A stretch of DNA of 64,000 bases from Mustelus asterias (lineage: Eukaryota). The stretch covers positions 36,022,001 through 36,086,000 of the forward strand of contig NC_135826.1 in NCBI RefSeq assembly GCF_964213995.1. The letters are read 5' to 3'. Made by a program: the position numbers and the translations under genes. The notes under the pieces are model-generated. The model searched no databases, was not told the DNA's origin, and was given only the letters and a program-made list of their open reading frames with translations. Position 1 is the first letter of the stretch. Each line of letters starts with the position of its first letter. Shown here in pieces: positions 2,320-44,322 of the stretch.

Positions 2320-2570
2320 ATGGCCCAGATCAGGTGTAAGGGATCAGGGTGGCCAAGGCTTCACCTGATGCAATTTTTTTAAAGTCATCGTGACCTTTTG
2401 GCCAAGATAAAGCACAGCTCGAGCCCAGGAGTGGGTGCAATGCCTCATCCTCTCAGCTTGGATCTTGCTTGATCAAGCCCAAGGTGGGATGTACACCCTT
2501 GCTTTATCAACTTGGATCTGGTTTGCCCCTCATGTGGGGACTCTGATTGAACTTCATTGGCTTTTTGATT
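2320..2570 (+). repeat. Diverged second copy of the double-U2-head repeat
   Basis: tggcccagatcaggtgta and ccttttggccaagataaag U2-like motifs separated by gcaatttttttaaa; downstream cagcttggatc...gatcaagcccaag...cttggatc...gactctga parallels 15820-15910. Confidence 0.55.
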
Positions 2571-2774
2571 AGGAATGAAGTACCAAAAAGGCACAAAAAA
2601 AAATTGTCAATCAGTCCAGTAATTCAGTTAATACCCTATCCAGGATCAGTCAGTCTGATCACCAAAATTGAGCAGGGGAGCCACAATTCAAACACAACTC
2701 AGTCATCAAATTGACTTCATACAAATCACTTAATACTCTAGAGTAATATTGTTTAATTCTATCAGATATTTGAC

Positions 2775-12710: not shown

Positions 12711-14489
12711 TAATGGGGTTGCTGCGCTGCAACTTTCAACCTTGGGCGATTTCATGGATCAGAATTTTTTTTAAGCCAGACAACTCTGAAGCTGTCCGAA
12801 GGTCAAACTGACAGCCAAGCAGTGACTGGAGGAGCATCTGGCATGGGAAAGATAGACTCCTGATAGATAGTGCCTCCAACAGGTCCTGCTTCTCCACTTG
12901 TGCACTGGCCTGCAAAACTCTTCTGATAACCTTTAGTGAATACAGATTTTTTAAAGATCTGTTACAAGGGGATTTATGCATTGAACTCATTGGAATAAAA
13001 ATGGAAGCCAATCTGATCAAAATACAGAAGTTACCGTTAGAGATGGTTAGGACAAGAGGCATGGGGTGGAGAGAGAGAGAGCGTATGCCCAGGACTACAT
13101 GCCGAATGACTCACAATGCATACAGTGAACATTACATGCATCTCAGTTGTACTGAAGACCTCGGAGTGCAACTTGTTCTTTGGAGACAACCTTTAAAACA
13201 ACTTGGCAATCTTTGTAAGGACCATTGTAAAATGTCTGAAATATTTCCTTTACTGTACTGAAGCATCTCAATGTTCCTTGATGAATGTAAAGAACATGAA
13301 TATTACTGCTTTTTGTATCATGGCTATTTTGGAATGTTTGTAATGTTCTTTCAGATTTCTTATGAATAAAGTATATTTTTGGGGGGAAAAGCCTCCATTG
13401 TCCATGGCGAACTAGAGGTGGATGAAGGTGCATATGGAAATATATGCAGGTTCGAGGTAAAGCAGCAAAGATTTCTTGGGCTCTCATTTTTGCAGGTATT
13501 CTATGGGCCCATGGGGCTGTGGCACGTCGGGGGTGGGGTGTGGTTTCAACAGCTGGAATCACACCTCATCTGTTTAAGGTTTCAATGGAAACCTGCTTAT
13601 TGTCTCAAGGGAGTCAGATGAATATTTGTGCTTTTCAATATTTTTTAGGGACCAGCACCAGGGATATCCGTAGAGCGGTGCTGCTGTTGGCGCAAGTAAT
13701 CGTTTGTATATCCATTAAAAATCATCAGGGCTTTCAACAGCATCAAATTCACAGAATTAAAAAGATTACGGCCACCATGCAGGAGTCTTTCAGCTGTAAT
13801 GAACAATTAATGATAACATCTTCTGGGAGATCAAGGAAAATCAGAAAATTAAAGTAGAGAGTCCTAGTTGGTAACAATGCCAGTGCAGACCCGGGAAGCT
13901 GTCAATCAGCCTTGTGCCAAGATGGACCCGGTTGTCATCCACATATGCTCCCAGGGAATTGAAATGTCGCTTCTAGTGATACCAAGTTATCTTGAGTGAT
14001 GTGAGTGAGTGCTGTCAGTATTTCCAGGGAAGGAGAAAGGAGTTCAGGCAGCAGCAAGCGAATGGGACCATCTCTTCTCCTCCATCCCTCTTTCCCTTCT
14101 ACAACTATCCAACAATGAAACAATGCAAGCTGCAGCACCGGGACAGACTCTCTTTTCTCTATAGAGCAAGTAGCTGAAATATATAAAAACAGAACCAGAA
14201 AGCTTTCCTTGCACTCTGGTTTACAAGTATTGAATCTTTCTCCCAAATTTGAATTTACTGCCACCAATGTACAGAACATGTTAAAGAGGCAATCATAAAA
14301 TCAGTGAGATTCTTTGCAATGTTATAAACAATCAGATATTTTCCTGTTAAATTAACAATGTTAAACTAAATTTTGTACTGAGGGTTTATTTAATAGTCAG
14401 GTTTAATAGTCACAAGCTATCACTGCAGCTCTTAATAGTAATGATCCATATTGCACATATATTAGAAAATATTTTTAAACAGATGCCAA

Positions 14490-15282: not shown

Positions 15283-15361
15283 CGAGGCCGACCCCGGCCC
15301 GGGTGGTCTCCCAGGTTTTGCTGGGACATTCCTCGCCATCCGCCGCCTCCCAGTAACCCAT
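15283..15361 (-). CDS. NDUFA11: NADH:ubiquinone oxidoreductase subunit A11, coding exon 1
   Basis: ATG at 15361; reads MGYWEAADGEECPSKTWETTRAGVGL+G (cf. the NDUFA11 YWD..DG..C motif); donor GTGAGT follows; CpG-rich context; 79 nt, phase 1. Confidence 0.9.
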
Positions 15362-15399
15362 AGCCGCGCGCCTCAAGGACACGGTCACCGGGGGAACCG

Positions 15400-15625
15400 A
15401 CTCAAACACCGCGAGAGCTCGGCGCCGCCCATGTGATCACCTCCCAGTCGTCACGTGACCGCTTTTCTCGGCCGCCGGCCATATGCCCTGGTGCGCAGGC
15501 GCAGTCAGGCCAGCCGTCTGTCGCAGCGCGCAGGCGCAGTCAGGCCAGCCGTATGTCGCAGCGCGCAGGCGCAGTCAGGCCAGCCGTATGTCGCAGCGCG
15601 CAGTCGCAGTCAGGCCAGCCTCAGC
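15400..15625 (-). promoter_or_regulatory. NDUFA11 CpG-rich promoter with E-box and NRF1-like repeats
   Basis: Palindrome GTCACGTGAC at 15450-15459; repeated GCGCAGGCGCA NRF1-like motifs at 15493-15620; directly upstream of exon 1. Confidence 0.65.
15493..15620. repeat. 35-bp tandem repeat, about 3.7 copies
   Basis: Unit GCGCAGGCGCAGTCAGGCCAGCCGT(A/C)TGTCGCAGC starting at 15493, 15528, 15563 and 15598 (partial). Confidence 0.95.
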
Positions 15626-15642: not shown

Positions 15643-15930
15643 TCGGCCTTTTGGCGAAGATCAAGTGTAGTATGCGGATGCTGCACTTGGTTGAGGTCAT
15701 TAGATTACATTTAAGCTTCATTTTCATATGAAGCAATTTTTAAAAGCGGCATCTCGGCCTTTTGGCTAAGGTGCAAATGAGATCAAGCCTTGGAGGAGGA
15801 AGACCTGCACCTACTCCAATCAGCTTGGCTCATGTCGATCAGGCCCAAGACAACATACCCTGCCTTGTCAGTTTGGATCGGAAATGTCTCAACTTGTTGA
15901 GACTCTGAATTGGATTTGATTGAATTGGGG
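15643..15930 (+). repeat. Repeat with two U2 snRNA 5'-end fragments (U2 pseudogene fragments or candidate U2-derived SINE)
   Basis: 15643-15673 matches U2 nt 9-39 with 1 mismatch; 15752-15770 matches U2 nt 7-25 exactly; no U2 Sm site or 3' stem-loops; body similar to 2320-2570. Confidence 0.7.
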
Positions 15931-15944
15931 AAAGTATGAAAAGA

Positions 15945-16841
15945 AAGTCTATTTACTACTGTCACAAGTAGGCTTATATTAACACTGCAATGAACAGAGA
16001 GATCTTGGGGTCCATATCCACAGATCTCTGAAGGTTGCCACTCAAGTGGATAGAGGTGTGAAGAAGGCCTAAAGTGTGTTAGCTTTTATTAACAGGGGGT
16101 TGGAGTTTAAGAGCCGTGGGGTTATGCTGCAACTGTACAGGACCTTGGTGAGACCACATTTGGAATATTGTGTGCAGTTCTGGTCACCTCACTATAAGAA
16201 GGATGTGGAAGCGCTGGAAAAAGTGCAAAGGAGATTTACCAGGATGCTGCCTGGTTTGGAGGGTAGGTCTTATGAGGAAAGGTTGAGGGAGCTAGGGCTG
16301 TTCTCTGGAGCGGAGGAGGTTGAGGGGAGACTTAATAGAGGTTTATAAAATGATGAAGGGGATAGATAGAGTGAACGTTCAAAGACTATTTCCTCGGGTG
16401 GATGGAGCTATTACAAGGGGGCATAACTATAGGGTTCATGGTGGGAGATATAGGAAGGATGTCCGAGGTAGGTTCTTTACTCAGAGAGTGGTTGGGGTGT
16501 GGAATGGACTGCCTGCAGTGATAGTGGAGTCATTTAAGAACATAATAGGAACATTTAAGTGGTTATTGGATCGGCACATGGAGCACACCAAGATGATAGG
16601 GAGTGGGGTAGCTTGATCTTGGTTTCAGATAAAGCTCGGCACAACATCGTGGGCCGAAGGGCCTGTTCTGTGCTGTACTGTTCTATGTTCTATAATGAAG
16701 TTACCGTGAAAATCCCCTCGTCGCCACACTCTGGTGCCTATTTGGGAACACCAAGGGAGAATTTAGCATGGCCAATGCACCTTAACCAGCACGCCTTTCG
16801 GACTGTGGGAGGAAACCGGAGCACCCGGAGGAAACCCACAT
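15945..16841 (-). mobile_element. SINE type B, 5'-truncated and split by a CR1 insertion
   Basis: Tail at 15945-15994 continues at 16694-16841. Confidence 0.8.
15995..16693 (+). mobile_element. CR1 LINE 3' fragment inserted into a SINE
   Basis: LVRPHLEYCVQFWSP and RGDLIEVYK; (TTCTATG) tail; TSD AATGAA at 15989-15994 and 16694-16699. Confidence 0.9.
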
Positions 16842-17519
16842 GGACTGGGTGCTCTTGAGTTAAAATTGGGGTTAGCTGAGTTTCGGGATGAGCTGAAGTT
16901 TTAGTGTGGGTGAAAAGTGAGAGCCTGGCCCAAAGAGCATTGGAACACTCGGGTCTGGAGGTAACAAATGCCAGGATTTCAGCAGCAGATGGACTGAGGC
17001 AGGTGATATTAGAGAGACGGATAGGATCAGAACTTTAGCCCAGAGTTAAATTGGATGGCAACATTATTAACAGTGATTCAGCCTGGGACTTGTGAGGAGG
17101 GGGAGAGGTGGAGATGGTGTATTGCAGGCAACATTTTTAATGCAATCCTTCTTCACAATTTTTAATTGGAGATGAAATTTCAGCTCATCTACTACTGGAT
17201 ATTAGAAAAGCACAGTGACAAATCAAAAGCATTTAAGCAGTTCGAGAGGTGATGATGAGGTGGAGTTGGATGTTATTAGCGTACACATGAAATGCGTCAT
17301 TGTATTTTGACCCCCACTCCCCCCCCCCCTCAAAGATATGCTGGGAAATTTGTCTTGGAAAATCCCACGTAAGCGTTTACCCAGCAATTGTCCAGAAGAG
17401 CTAACTTCCCCTGCAATTTAAATTACTAACTTTGGATGATTCTCCCAGTTTTACACTCAGTGTTACTCTAAGAGTAAGAAGAAAAAGAAGTATTCTAACT
17501 TCAGTGTATCTTATAGCTC

Positions 17520-19560: not shown

Positions 19561-21466
19561 TCGATGATCCACTTTTGAATTTATTTCTGTCTACATATTC
19601 TCTGCTGCTTTCAGAAATGCTTCAGAAATTCTTTTTATGTTTTAGCTTTCCTGGAATCCTTCTGAATTGTTTTTTTTCTCAATTGTCTACATTTTGTTCT
19701 GAACTATATGGGGGTTGAATTGATTAGCCCTTGATCAGGGATTGTTGTGAACCCATGCCCTTTCAGTGGAATGCAGGGGGTATATGATGTGCTGCTTGCT
19801 GATTATCATTGGGATCCAAACATTATTGCTGCCTGGCACTACTAAAAACTGGCCTGTACTGCTTAAAGTTTGCCTGCACCTTTACAAAGGAAGGGGCATT
19901 GTGGCTGTGGGAGGTACTGAGATAATTGGGGATGTGTACAGTGCAATAATCAACAATGGTTGGACATGGAAGAGAGTGGACATCAAGGTTTTCACGTGCC
20001 CCACTAGAGATCTTCGTGAAGAGCTGGAAATGAGGAAAAGTAGCCTGTGCTCTCAGGGCATGCTCAGAAAGCAGTGGCAAGGAAAAACAGAGAGGCGCTA
20101 AAGCAATTAGTTCCCGGTCAGCTCTGCTTGTTCAAGATCTTCTATGGACTGGACTTGTATTGCTAACCCTTGTAATGCTGTGGATCTCATCTTGGGCTAT
20201 AATGTGGCTGTGGTGCAACTCTAATGGAGACTTTGTCCTTCGCGAGAAACTGTTTATTCAATAGTTTGTTAAAAACCCATACCTTGCCTGCAATGAACAT
20301 GGAAATATCTGCATTCTTCAGAGCTGCAATATTTAGGGCTGTACACCTCATTTATTTCACCATAGCAATGCGTTGTGTCGTTCCAGTCTGCATTCGATTG
20401 AATCCATCAGCTCTTTTCTCCTTTCAATTATATTTCATTTGACACATTTGCTTGAACCGGAACCCAAATCATTTTGTGATATGTTTTATTTGCATTCGAG
20501 TTCATTACTTACAGGTGCTACACTTCAACAAGTTCTGCAGTGAATGAACAGCTCTTGTTTATTGTCTGAGTCCATCAGTAGCATCACATCTAAGTGCCTG
20601 ATAAACTCTGAAACAGTTCAGTGAGTATATGGTTGGCTTGCTGGTAGTAATACGAAGTGTACCATGTGGAGGTCAGTCCAGCATTCCGCTCCATGATGCT
20701 GGTCATCTTTATGCACTGCAAATTACGTTGCCAGATGCTGATGTAATCAATAAGAAGCCATATCCTTGTTACAGGGAGCAGTCAAGATGTTTCGTATTGG
20801 TCTAGAAAAAGACTGTAGAAGGGAAAGAAAGAATTTGTATTTATTAGTGATAACCAGCACATGCTTGACATAGTGGCCACAAAATTGGACTCCATAATGT
20901 CGCTGGGTGAAACCCGGGGTACCAAATATGGTGGTCAATCCACTACACTAGTGTGAGCGTGCCATGTATATGTCAGAAGCATGTGGATTGGGCAGATCAC
21001 TCAGCATGTAATGCTAACCAGCTCCCCCCACCCCCCACCCCAACCTCTTCCCCTCCCTGTTTACTTATAGTAATCAGCATGGGACTTTCAGCTGAGCTCC
21101 CTTTGACATTTTGTGTTCAGCAGAGTCAGTGGAAGATCCGTCTATGGTTTTGTTGCTAAAAAGTTGTTGGAGTCAGATGGGAAAGGTGCTGGATTTTCCT
21201 AAGGAGTTCAGTAGCATTTCGAGATCGCCGGGCAGAAAACCGGCACTCAACTCCTGAGGCTCAATATTTGCAGTCCCTGTGGGGTTGCAGAATGAACAGG
21301 GAGCATGGGCAGCGGAGAGGGGAAGCTATGCATGGAGGGAGGAAAAGGAAAGCTCTCGGTAGAAGGTTGTACCCAGCTAGGGTCTTCAGGGAGCATTTCA
21401 TCAACCTCCACCTCAGGCAGGAGCAGTGTCTAACGAGCAAGAAGGTGATCTGTGCCACCTCCTTCA

Positions 21467-21720
21467 TGATGTGGAGATGCCGGTGTTGGACTGGGGTGAA
21501 CACAGTAAGAAGTTTAACAACACCAGGTTAAAGTCCAACAGGTTTATTTGGTAGCAAAAGCCACACAAGCTTTCGGAGCTCTAAGCCCCTTTGCTCTGTT
21601 TGTGAACAGAATTCCCACTCACCTGAAGAAGGGGCTTAGAGCTCCGAAAGCTTGTGTGGCTTTTGCTACCAAATAAACCTGTTGGACTTTAACCTGGTGT
21701 TGTTAAACTTCTTACTGTGT
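21467..21720. mobile_element. Fold-back Penelope-like terminal-repeat insertion with hammerhead motif
   Basis: 92-bp inverted arms 21500-21591 and 21629-21720; TSD CCACCTCCTTCA at 21455-21466 and 21721-21732; hammerhead motif at 21620-21656. Confidence 0.85.
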
Positions 21721-23987: not shown

Positions 23988-24514
23988 CTGAAAAAGGAAA
24001 ATGGAAAGTTAGTCAGGCAAAATGAGGAGAAATCAGGGAAGGAACAGATGAGAACATTGAGGAGATGATAGTCTATCAGTTGTAATACACATACCAGGGC
24101 CACCCAGTATCAGGACTATCACCAGTACCAGCTCCATTTTTCCATTCTAGCAAAGACTTCTCCCCAGAGCACAGCCAAAATTAATTTTTGCATTATTATC
24201 AATCCTTTCTCTTTACTTCTCTTACAATAATAGGGCTGCATTTTCCCACAGGGTTCAGGATCCCGATATTGGGATCAATAGAAGGACCCGGACCTGCACA
24301 CTTCCCAATAAGCAAGACTGGCTCAGCAATTCTCTGGGAGGCAGCCTACCAACTGGTTCTTTATGAGCTTCTTTATCTGAATAAGGTAGCGGTAACTCTT
24401 GTACACCTTCCTGAATACTAGAAACAAACAGATCTAACTCAACAGCACAATAGCAGTTCGGCCATCTTCGTTCCAATTTCTGTTACATCTACCCAGTCCT
24501 TTCTGTTGGACCTC

Positions 24515-24649
24515 CACTGTGGGTGCCCTTCCTGCACTGTGGGAGCCCTTTCTGCACTGTGGGTGCCCTTCCTGCACTGTGGGTGCCCTTCCTGCTCTGT
24601 GGGAGCCCTTCCTGCATTGTGGGTATCCTTCCTGCTCTGTGGGTGCCTT
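24515..24649. repeat. 20-bp tandem repeat, about 6.5 copies, in the last kinase intron
   Basis: Unit C(A/T)CTGTGGG(T/A)GCCCTTCCTG. Confidence 0.9.
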
Positions 24650-26544
24650 TAGCGCAGGACAGTTGTTCTCTATTAGGAAGCGAAAAGGATAAAAATCAAC
24701 AGAGAGACACTCATCCCAATCACGTTGATGGGATTGACCATTTTAAAGTATAGGATGGCTATGGTTTAAGGTGGGTATCCTGCTTCAACTTCCACAAAAG
24801 CTGCCTTCCTTGGTTGCTCTTTCTTCCTTTTTCTGGGTCAGTGCTGAGGTAGTCTGGGAAGGATCCACAGATGTTAAGTTCTGCTTCCAGAGGAGACATT
24901 TCCTATGAGGTTACTTGGGTCACTACAGACCTCTTTGGCCCTAGCCGTTGTTTTATCAGATAGTTAACATTCACTGAAAGATCACTTTTCCATTAAGAAT
25001 ACAAATAGCTACATCTTGGGCTGAAAGCTTGGATACAGAATGCTACAAATTGGGTTGCCCTGGTTTTTGGAGGTGAGGGAAGTGATGCCCATACAGTCAG
25101 TTTTTTTTTTGCCCATACAGTCAGTAACACACAATTGTCATGTACCCATTTCAGCTGTACGATTGTGGAACATTGGTTTGAGCAGTTCCAGTGATGTTTC
25201 TCTGTCCTCCAAGCTATCTGCAGCCTCTGCGCACAGTATCAGTTGCTGATCACGAGCTACCACTAGGCTTCCTATTAAAGAGAGGCTGCATTCCTGAGAC
25301 TATGGGTGGGATTTTATGGCCTCGCTCATCCTGAAACCGGAAAATCCCACCCGAGGTCAACGGACATTTCCATGGTCCGCCCCTTGCCCACTCCAATTCC
25401 CATGGCGGGCGGGGTGGTAAAGTTGCAACCTATGACTGAGGAAAAATCATTTCGAAAGATTGGGAGAATGTCGCAGCAGGCAAGGTTGAGGGCTTATTTC
25501 TTTATTGATGCTGCACTGGAGGCTCTGATCACTTGAGATGGACTCCTGGATGGAGTTTTCCCAAGTGGGAAAGAAATCCAGAAGGCACAGCCTGAAGAGA
25601 CAATGGGAACATTTGCCCTGAAGGTGAAGGCCTGGAACCCGGACAGGGGCAGACCTGCTTAGGGATGTCCTGTACAGCAATCTGCTGTCTTCCCCAGTGC
25701 AAGTCAGCAGCCTTCCATCAACCACACAGTAACCACAGGGGTAGCACTGTGTAGAGGCAAGAGCACTTATATGACAGACTCTACAGGATTGCGCAAGGGG
25801 GATTAGTTCATTGTTGTTTCTATAGTTGGACATGCTGTTGCATAAAGATGCTTTGTAAAGGTCTTTATTGGTGACCTTTATTGCTGGATGTTGGGCAAGG
25901 AGTCATTGTGATGGAGAGCGTGAAATGAATGTAGGGGTGGTGCTAGGTGGGCCCATGTTGAGACGGGAAAGTTGTTTGAAATGGAAATGTAGCTTCACAA
26001 TCCTCCGTCTGACATTCCATTTAGCTACGGGACGCAGGAAGCCAACAGGGATGGCAGCAAAGACATGTTTGATGGACATTCTGCATATTCTGCGAAAGGT
26101 TACAGCTAACCACTATGGATCAGGGCTGATCAATTAACAAGCTGATGTAGGGGCAACAATCTTTTATTTGCTCAGGCTAGAATAACAGAGGCCATGATTA
26201 TTCTACCTGGATCAGTTCAAACAGGGAGAGCTACTTGTAGGTTTATTCATGATCCACCCAACTCAGTTGTGACTCATCATTGATTGATTACTGGAGCTTT
26301 GCTACAGGATGTGAGCAGAGATTACCCTCTTTGTTAGAACATAGAATCTTTGAAAAGAAATGTTGGTGACCTTCGCCTAATATCTAAACTGGTGACAGGA
26401 TCAGGATGGTACTTTATTATCTGAGGGCACAAAGCAAGTTCCCTTAGCTCAGAGGAAAGCTTCAGTGCAGTAACCCTACCCTGATCCTTCAGGCCGTTTG
26501 CTAGGAAACTGGTGAAACCAACGCTTACATTCACATCACATAGT

Positions 26545-43527: not shown

Positions 43528-44322
43528 TACAGATATATTGACCCAGAAGAGGGGTGCAGAGTATATTTGCCCCAAGGAGGGGGGGGGGGTGCAGAGTATA
43601 TTTGCCCCAAGGAGGGGGGGGGGGTTGCAGAGTATATTTGCCCCAAGGAGGGGGGGGGGGGGGGTGCAGAGTATATTTGCCCCAAGGAGGGGGGGTGCAG
43701 AGTATATTTGCCCCAAGGAGGGGGGGTGCAGAGTATATTTGCCCCAAGGAGGGGGGGTGCAGAGTATATTTGCCCCAAGGAGGGGGGGGGGGGTGCAGAG
43801 TATATTTGCCCCAAGGAGGGGGGGGGGGGTGCAGAGTATATTTGCCCCAAGGAGGGGGGGTGCAGAGTATATTTGCCCCAAGGAGGAGGGGGTGGGGGTG
43901 CAGAGTACATTTGCCCCAAGGAGGAGGGGGTGGGGGTGCAGAGTACATTTGCCCCAAGGAGGGGGGGTGCAGAGTACATTTGCCCCAAGGAGGATGGGGG
44001 GGTGCAGAGTACATTTGCCCCAAGGAGGGGTGGGGGGGTGCAGAGTACATTTGCCCCAAGGAGGATGGGGGGGTGCAGAGTACATTTGCCCCAAGGAGGG
44101 GTGGGGGGTGCAGAGTACATTTGCCCCCGGGGGCGGGGGGGGGGTGCAGAGTACAATTGCCCCAAGGGGGGGGGTGCAGAGTACAATTGTCCCAAGGAGG
44201 GGGGGGGGGGGGGGCGGTGCAGAGTACATTTGCCCCAAGGAGGGGGGGGGGTGCAGAGTACATTTGCCCCAAGGAGGGGGGTGCAGGGTACCTTTGCCCC
44301 AAGGTGGGGGGTGCAGGGTACA
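43528..44322. repeat. G-rich minisatellite in POLE4 intron 1, about 23 copies
   Basis: Unit (G)nTGCAGAGTA(T/C)ATTTGCCCCAAGGA of about 30-43 bp with variable G tracts; it explains the six overlapping Pro/Gly ORFs. Confidence 0.95.

Follow-up and report, generated by a model that had tools for sequence, protein, structure and literature searches.

A family of snRNA-derived SINE-like retroposons in Mustelus asterias and a possible source of its RNA in U2 genes

The stretch of Mustelus asterias DNA analysed here (64,000 nucleotides, hereafter the window) carries two copies of an element that is, with hardly any room for doubt, a dispersed non-coding SINE-like retroposon. Very probably, this SINE is a non-autonomous passenger mobilised by a Keno-type LINE of the Tx1 clade, whose target site in U2 genes it uses. 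Judging from sequence features, it is probably transcribed by RNA polymerase II (Pol II) from the promoter of SINE-bearing U2 genes.

Results

The Window Carries Copies of Two Related Families

A preliminary description, made from the window alone, had noticed two U2 5' fragments about 110 bp apart. Measured against the same genome's own U2 gene, the spacing is 111 bp, and the first fragment is identical at 30 of 31 positions to U2 nt 9-39, including the branch-point recognition sequence. The second fragment corresponds to U2 nt 7-25 (15752-15770) and is followed, as had been described, by a 9-nt insert and AGATCAAG. The end that had been placed at 15930 needs revision, the true one lying at about 15942 (Table 1). 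The similar architecture reported at 2320-2570 reflects homology over 2321-2603, with a local score of 119 when compared to a maximum of 45 in 500 shuffles, and the bodies of the two copies alone score 77, with a shuffle maximum of 36 (500 shuffles). Neither copy shows a clear target-site duplication, the longest exact matches being 4 and 6 nt. With 29.2 bits on the Rfam U2 model, whose cut-off is 46, the copy at 15643-15942 is not a functional U2 gene.

Table 1. Positions of the SINE copies and their parts in the window
Feature	Position	Strand	Remark
Family A copy (subfamily A1), ~300 bp	15643..15942	+	5'-truncated to U2 nt 9; 95.6% to A1 majority sequence
Head 1, U2 snRNA nt 9-39	15643..15673	+	Branch-point recognition sequence GTAGTA at 15667-15672
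Arm complementary to head 1	15681..15699	+	From folding; predicted long hairpin pairing U2 nt ~18-36
Spacer	15693..15716	+	Aligned with U4 nt 23-47 piece of family B; in A1 too diverged for a score of its own
Small hairpin and T5 run	15715..15745	+	Pol III stop signal; in 57/58 copies
Head 2, U2 nt 7-25 retained as U2 stem I	15750..15773	+	U2 fragment proper 15752-15770
Internal hairpin unit	15779..15857	+	In part duplicates the next unit
Body from U2 nt ~40-102	15858..15928	+	Stem IIb hairpin 15886-15903 (C-G to U-A, family B vs A)
Tail motif and short A-run	15930..15942	+	
Copy of older family B	2321..2603	+	
Worn U2 head (family B copy)	2321..2340		
Spacer with deletion (family B copy)	2347..2371		
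Head 2 (family B copy)	2386..2408		
Body derived from U2 nt 46-112 (family B copy)	2504..2574		
Worn AATAAA and A-tail (family B copy)	2574..2603		

The surroundings of the 15643 copy are themselves rich in features. Directly upstream, 15284-15625 is CpG-rich and has three tandem 35-bp GC-rich repeats, which we take to contain an NRF1-like motif. A likely first coding exon runs on the minus strand from 15361 to 15284 (26 codons, with a splice donor at its end); it presumably resembles NDUFA11 and has no Pfam match. Directly after the tail begins another abundant SINE (15943-16850), split by a repeat of ~700 bp at 15992-16693 that we assume to be like a CR1 3' end; this SINE may have disrupted the target-site duplication of its U2-headed neighbour. 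Elsewhere in the window, there are a repeat with long inverted arms (21464-21700, recurring at 2768, 11586, and 40801) with spurious Rfam miRNA matches, and minisatellites at 43546-44322 (period 31-38 bp) and 24491-24670 (period 20 bp).

The U2-Headed Element Forms Dispersed Families of Different Age

The genome searched comprises 3.68 Gb, and the family counts come from the best 40 scored of the first-look candidates. The query from 15643 gave 2286 such candidates, and the best 40 scored were all 91-100% alike over most of the query, which bears out the earlier argument that this is not a single U2 pseudogene. The query spanning 2315-2600 gave 2421, with the best 40 scored at 78-100%. From 30 aligned loci, the family A unit is ~315 bp long, begins at U2 nt 1, and closes with a short tail motif and an A-run. 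Two subfamilies can be told apart: A1, to which the window copy belongs, at 95-99% to its own majority sequence, and A2 at 98-100%. Family B is older than A, has AATAAA before its tail, and in 15 of 30 loci its first U2 head is replaced by U1 nt 1-95. Family C is one-headed and was found beside the U2 cluster on contig C24, and all 40 scored matches to it are at 87-100%.

Target-site duplications of at least 8 nt flank 24 of 62 family A copies (60/3738 in mismatched pairs) and 12 of 29 A2 copies (16/812 in mismatched pairs), and head-to-tail stacks of the SINE have one duplication in common. In the old families, duplications are not clearly over control (1/19 in C; 1/8 and 1/8 in B). The flanks of aligned copies have no common sequence, and the target consensus after the A-run shows a weak T bias only. 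Dispersal, an A-rich tail, and target-site duplications agree with the U2-headed mobile family that had been suspected. The same description had left the choice between a SINE and the remnant of a U2-targeting element such as Keno or Utopia; the first stands, as a SINE-like retroposon, and the second falls, since the SINE has no coding sequence. Neither was LINE sequence found in the SINE body.

An arbitrary sample of 77 stretches of 10 kb (770 kb) contained one copy of family C, the U1-headed end of a known family B copy, and none of family A. By Poisson arithmetic from this sample, there are roughly 1,000-35,000 copies in all, likely a family of jumping sequences thousands strong. Copy numbers based on Rfam first-look counts (135,653 for U2) were rejected because U4 gave 232,592. 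Two intact SINE copies exceed the Rfam U2 cut-off (48-58 bits), true U2 genes scoring 170-190 bits.

The Element Is a Mosaic of snRNA Pieces

The part after the heads had been described as a non-U2 body. Alignments of families B and C revise this, as the body descends from U2 nt ~39-112. The family B body aligns to U2 nt 39-112 with a score of 48 (0/500 shuffles as high), and the family B copy of the window, over 2419-2585, aligns to U2 with a score of 35 (0/500 shuffles). Family C aligns to U2 nt 44-154 with a score of 63 (shuffle maximum 33), follows U2 colinearly as far as about nt 154, and is homologous to the bodies of both A and B. The family A body alone shows no significant match to U2 (81/500 and 88/500 shuffles as high). 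Since it is homologous to the family C body (score 96, shuffle maximum 37), itself alignable to U2, we conclude that it too is U2-derived.

The spacer of family B matches U4 nt 23-47, with 23 of 25 positions identical (0/300 shuffles). Comparisons of family A with U1, and of A1 and C with U4, were not significant, and that of A2 with U4 was matched by 9/300 shuffles. With a U2 body, a U4 piece in the family B spacer, and U1 heads in some family B copies, the element is pieced together from several snRNAs.

Across families, U2 stems I and IIb are retained, and two-sided changes are found in 9 of 37 core pairs, a count reached by 10/500 shuffles and inflated by the kinship of the sequences. Compared with shuffles, A copies fold with z-scores of -5.2 and -8.4 and one old B copy with -0.9. 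The predicted head hairpin would cover most of the branch-point recognition sequence. Since none of its 20-27 predicted pairs shows a two-sided change, folding energy is what speaks for this hairpin.

A Keno-Type LINE and the SINE Use the Same Site in U2 Genes

In the genome searched (G000), U2 genes cluster on C24 and a variant U2 (170-175 bits) clusters on C21, and both clusters hold a LINE with ZCCHC3-type ORF1, APE, RT, and zf-RVT domains, whose nearest solved structure is L1 ORF2. Its 5' end has a U2 head (nt 1/5-33/35), in register behind the U2 flank, and its tail is joined to U2 nt 38/39 in both clusters. The LINE is dispersed across the genome (147 scored copies, 92-100%), with 1144-aa open frames in five copies among the 20 stretches read. 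Since 16 of the best 30 loci are at non-U2 sites, strict U2 specificity does not hold, and we regard it as a Keno-type LINE with relaxed targeting.

The SINE uses Keno's U2 site, as the preliminary description had guessed in pointing to Keno, and SINE copies are joined to U2 nt 38/39 in both U2 clusters. A genome-wide pattern search for the SINE tail followed by U2 nt 38-49 gave five matches (control 0), all of them family A at U2 nt 38/39. Of 12 junctions between an A-run and U2 nt 38-54, eight belong to the LINE, three to the SINE, and one to another repeat. Five of the junction matches sit in re-inserted composites and do not count as independent insertions; the clusters themselves hold only four junctions. 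Both elements meet at G000:C24:43,060,550-43,064,357, where a U2 gene that retains its native upstream flank is interrupted in turn by a SINE, the LINE, and a second SINE, and U2 nt 38-55 recurs between these insertions. In addition, 5 of 16 dispersed LINE 3' ends continue directly into a SINE head, as against no family A copy in the 770 kb sampled arbitrarily, and three of these five have one duplication in common. The SINE is distinct from the LINE 3' UTR except for a tail motif of ~10 nt (7/500 shuffles for B; not significant for A). For family B at the U2 site, there were two pattern matches, both with LINE-type tails, and no SINE was seen inside U1 genes in seven stretches of 10 kb.

The snRNA arrays show further traces of the LINE and of their own turnover. 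At C24:44,815,000-44,940,000, tandem units of 8,035 bp each pair an intact U2 gene with one interrupted by the LINE. An abundant SINE is inserted in the LINE copy of this array, which indicates that a broken LINE was amplified along with the array. Several units of the C24 U2 array are 207 bp and not 191 (88% match), which suggests that a 16-nt internal duplication has spread via array turnover. At C21:28,044,000-28,082,000, variant U2 genes, ~90% identical to the C24 type, repeat with a 448-bp period; the LINE occupies most of these U2 copies, and in one case its 1144-aa frame is open. U4 genes at G000:C1418:78,000-87,999 have a nearly complete Keno-type LINE and an old SINE copy between them, and the spacer of a U1 array contains a LINE fragment; the genes are uninterrupted in both cases. 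In the window, 13340-13390 is a 3' end like the tail of the Keno-type LINE (26-nt match), possibly of a related Tx1 family.

U2 Genes as a Possible Source of SINE RNA

With a U2-embedded copy as the query, the best dispersed A2 copies start at nt 1 in 15 of 29 cases and at nt 1-2 in 17 of 29. The U2 flank lies upstream of none of these 17, and the junction between head and body is identical in all 29. Most A1 copies have their start at nt 4-6, and 3/29 at nt 1-2, with a query that itself lacked nt 1-8. Such starts are compatible with transcription from a U2 promoter; a by-eye search for a PSE yielded no confidently identified promoter element upstream of either U2 cluster.

The flank of the C21 U2 genes gave 20 matches, of which 10 lead into the SINE, six into the LINE, and four into intact U2. 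One of the 10 leading into the SINE is in the C21 cluster and nine are elsewhere, including two duplicates and two within one composite. Outside the cluster, six of seven flank-bearing SINE composites lie between new duplications of 10-18 nt, assessed by eye, and two more units consist of the SINE and U2 target within outer duplications, one with a LINE tail. Re-insertion of composites between new duplications implies that copies in U2 arrays have served as RNA templates. Since the composites begin upstream of U2 nt 1, what they show is read-through out of a U2 unit or LINE lying further upstream, and not that the adjacent promoter initiates transcription. Three composites have additional U2 pieces (nt 6/8/11-43/48) at their 5' end. 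Together with the U1 and U4 pieces, which cannot be acquired via insertion into U2, these show that template jumps onto snRNAs occur, and such jumps could also give a start at nt 1.

These observations lend weight to an alternative that we hold to be unlikely, with the same SINE and LINE, in which the RNA arises by read-through from host introns, an upstream LINE, or an upstream U2 unit, a template jump to free U2 snRNA during reverse transcription fills out the U2 head or substitutes a new one, and insertions into U2 genes are a side effect. The composites starting upstream of nt 1, the added U2 fragments with ends at nt 43-48, the U1 nt 1-95 heads in half of the family B loci, and the U4 piece all fit it, and SINEU-2 shows such jumps in the portion of Kojima 2015 (PMC4494074) available to us. 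Against it, the single junction of the A2 copies argues for heads passed down from master copies, common 5' extensions would be expected from read-through at varied loci yet none precede the 17 A2 copies starting at nt 1-2, and the LINE has a head of the same type in register behind the U2 flank.

Improbable, in our view, is a master that is a separate diverged snRNA-like gene outside the U2 clusters, with its own upstream snRNA promoter and possibly a host function. Family C, with its colinearity to U2 up to about nt 154, does look like a diverged near-full-length U2, and structure is kept across families, as the kinship-inflated count of two-sided changes in 9/37 pairs (10/500 shuffles) indicates. 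However, the U2-cluster flank is the sole common upstream sequence seen, the many subfamilies with differing head loops suggest many masters, and family A has an altered Sm-site region.

Very improbable is an ordinary Pol III SINE in which U2 pieces by chance serve as A and B boxes. We take GATCAAGCC at 15780-15788 to match the B-box consensus and TGGCTAAGAT to be A-box-like, but the B-box-like motif is altered in the youngest subfamily, A2. T4-or-longer runs, 3-4 per copy, are present in 58/58 copies, which disfavours Pol III; a T4 lies in each head, and the runs of at least five T in 57/58 copies would terminate this polymerase. By Rfam and the T-run count, the SINE has neither the tRNA, 7SL, or 5S head nor the terminator-free body of a canonical Pol III SINE. 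Finally, U2 pseudogenes that each arose as separate chimeras, or remnants of Keno or Utopia, forming no family, can be dismissed, because even though the head ends near nt 37-39, Keno's insertion point, where U2 retrocopies frequently end, the 40/40 dispersed matches, the fixed ends with one junction in all 29 A2 copies, the subfamilies at 98-100% to their majority sequence, and the body without LINE sequence all speak for a family.

Transcription of SINE-bearing U2 genes remains our preferred reading, and we tentatively place it in a wider picture, to which we give a little less than even confidence. The SINE would be a recently or still active snRNA-mosaic lineage, separate in origin from crocodilian SINEU, with source copies maintained in U2 genes, insertion at nt 38 by Keno, transcription from nt 1 by the U2 promoter, and an antisense arm that masks the branch-point sequence so that splicing is spared. 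In the preferred reading itself, the LINE would nick U2 at nt 37/38 and the SINE be inserted there; pairing of the SINE head with nt 1-37 of the gene would fuse the copy in register behind the U2 upstream flank. The SINE-bearing U2 gene would then yield RNA from U2 nt 1 through the SINE, which LINE proteins would copy, mostly into loose A/T-rich sites and at times back into U2. Second U2, U4, and U1 heads would be gained via re-insertion into U2 or template jumps onto snRNAs, and the predicted head hairpin would mask the branch-point recognition sequence. As to the masters themselves, two U2-embedded A2 copies have six and two changes found in 0/29 dispersed A2 copies, and the best 40 scored matches include no gap-free, full-length descendant of the one-headed copy behind the C24 flank, so that no present master emerges from these comparisons.

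Discussion

Kojima 2015 (PMC4494074), in the part available to us, leaves the transcription of SINEU open, finds SINEU in crocodilians alone, and describes mostly old families. With young copies, LINEs with open frames, and SINE-bearing U2 genes in one genome, the question becomes testable. The family described here would extend snRNA-derived SINEs past crocodilians, add U4 as a donor, and show an evolutionary series, from the U2-colinear C to B and A. If transcription from U2 genes is confirmed, it would explain how promoter-less snRNA-headed SINEs are transcribed, and this would be a SINE class that exploits a host RNA gene in two ways, for its sequence and for its promoter. A practical consequence is that intact SINE copies, scoring above the Rfam U2 cut-off, risk being miscounted as U2 genes.

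Among known systems, Keno is close to the LINE. As far as the consulted parts of PMC6136364, PMC4640811, and PMC3706591 go, Keno uses the same U2 site, with an 18-21-nt duplication of U2 nt 38-55/58, and the 3' flank at C24:43,060,550-43,064,357 equals the Keno flank given in the available text of PMC6136364. The LINE shares with Keno a 3' end at U2 nt 38/39, APE and RT domains, and L1/Tx1-type ORFs, although Keno is described in these excerpts as far more site-specific. Unlike Keno, the SINE is non-coding, and it has only a short tail motif in common with the LINE. Utopia uses the same U2 site according to the portion seen of PMC4640811, with a restriction-like endonuclease where the local LINE has an APE domain.

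The R2 and R2/R1 SIDEs of Drosophila are a functional analogue, going by the accessible sections of PMC3414825. They too travel with a site-specific LINE without being autonomous, reside in a multicopy RNA gene, and depend on the transcription of this host gene, and snRNA template jumps are seen there as well. In contrast to the SINE, which is made of snRNA pieces and mostly dispersed, they are LINE deletion derivatives with a ribozyme and are confined to rDNA; the SINE has no match to the ribozyme families in Rfam.

The closest known system is crocodilian SINEU, a likeness by description in the part available of PMC4494074 and not by sequence alignment. The SINE has the features of that class: a U1/U2-derived 5' head, a non-coding unit of <500 bp with a 3' A-tail, descent from master copies (one junction in 29/29, subfamilies) and not from independent chimeras, internal oligo-T with no working Pol III unit as far as sequence can tell, and a target in common with a Tx1-clade LINE. 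SINEU-1, -2, and -3, with Tx1-Mar as partner, are alike in size (<500 bp), in the repeated addition of U1/U2 heads, in the A-tail, and in internal oligo-T; there too, copies stand in tandem around a single duplication, the Tx1 partner, from the Keno branch, has snRNA heads, and SINEU-3 and family C are both the simplest, U2-colinear form (PMC4494074, same portion). Searches of the literature revealed no such family outside crocodilians, nor did term look-up in the text at hand of PMC5499810, PMC13023118, PMC5381603, and PMC5786205, and a Repbase or Dfam entry may exist. The differences are equally clear in what PMC4494074 describes in that portion. SINEU has no U4 piece and targets Mariner-N4, whereas here there are a U4 piece and the Keno site in U2 genes, and crocodilian SINEU is mostly old, whereas the youngest copies here are 98-100% identical to their majority sequence. 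We regard the family as a real one of the SINEU kind, distinguished by its Keno-type partner and its insertions into U2 genes.
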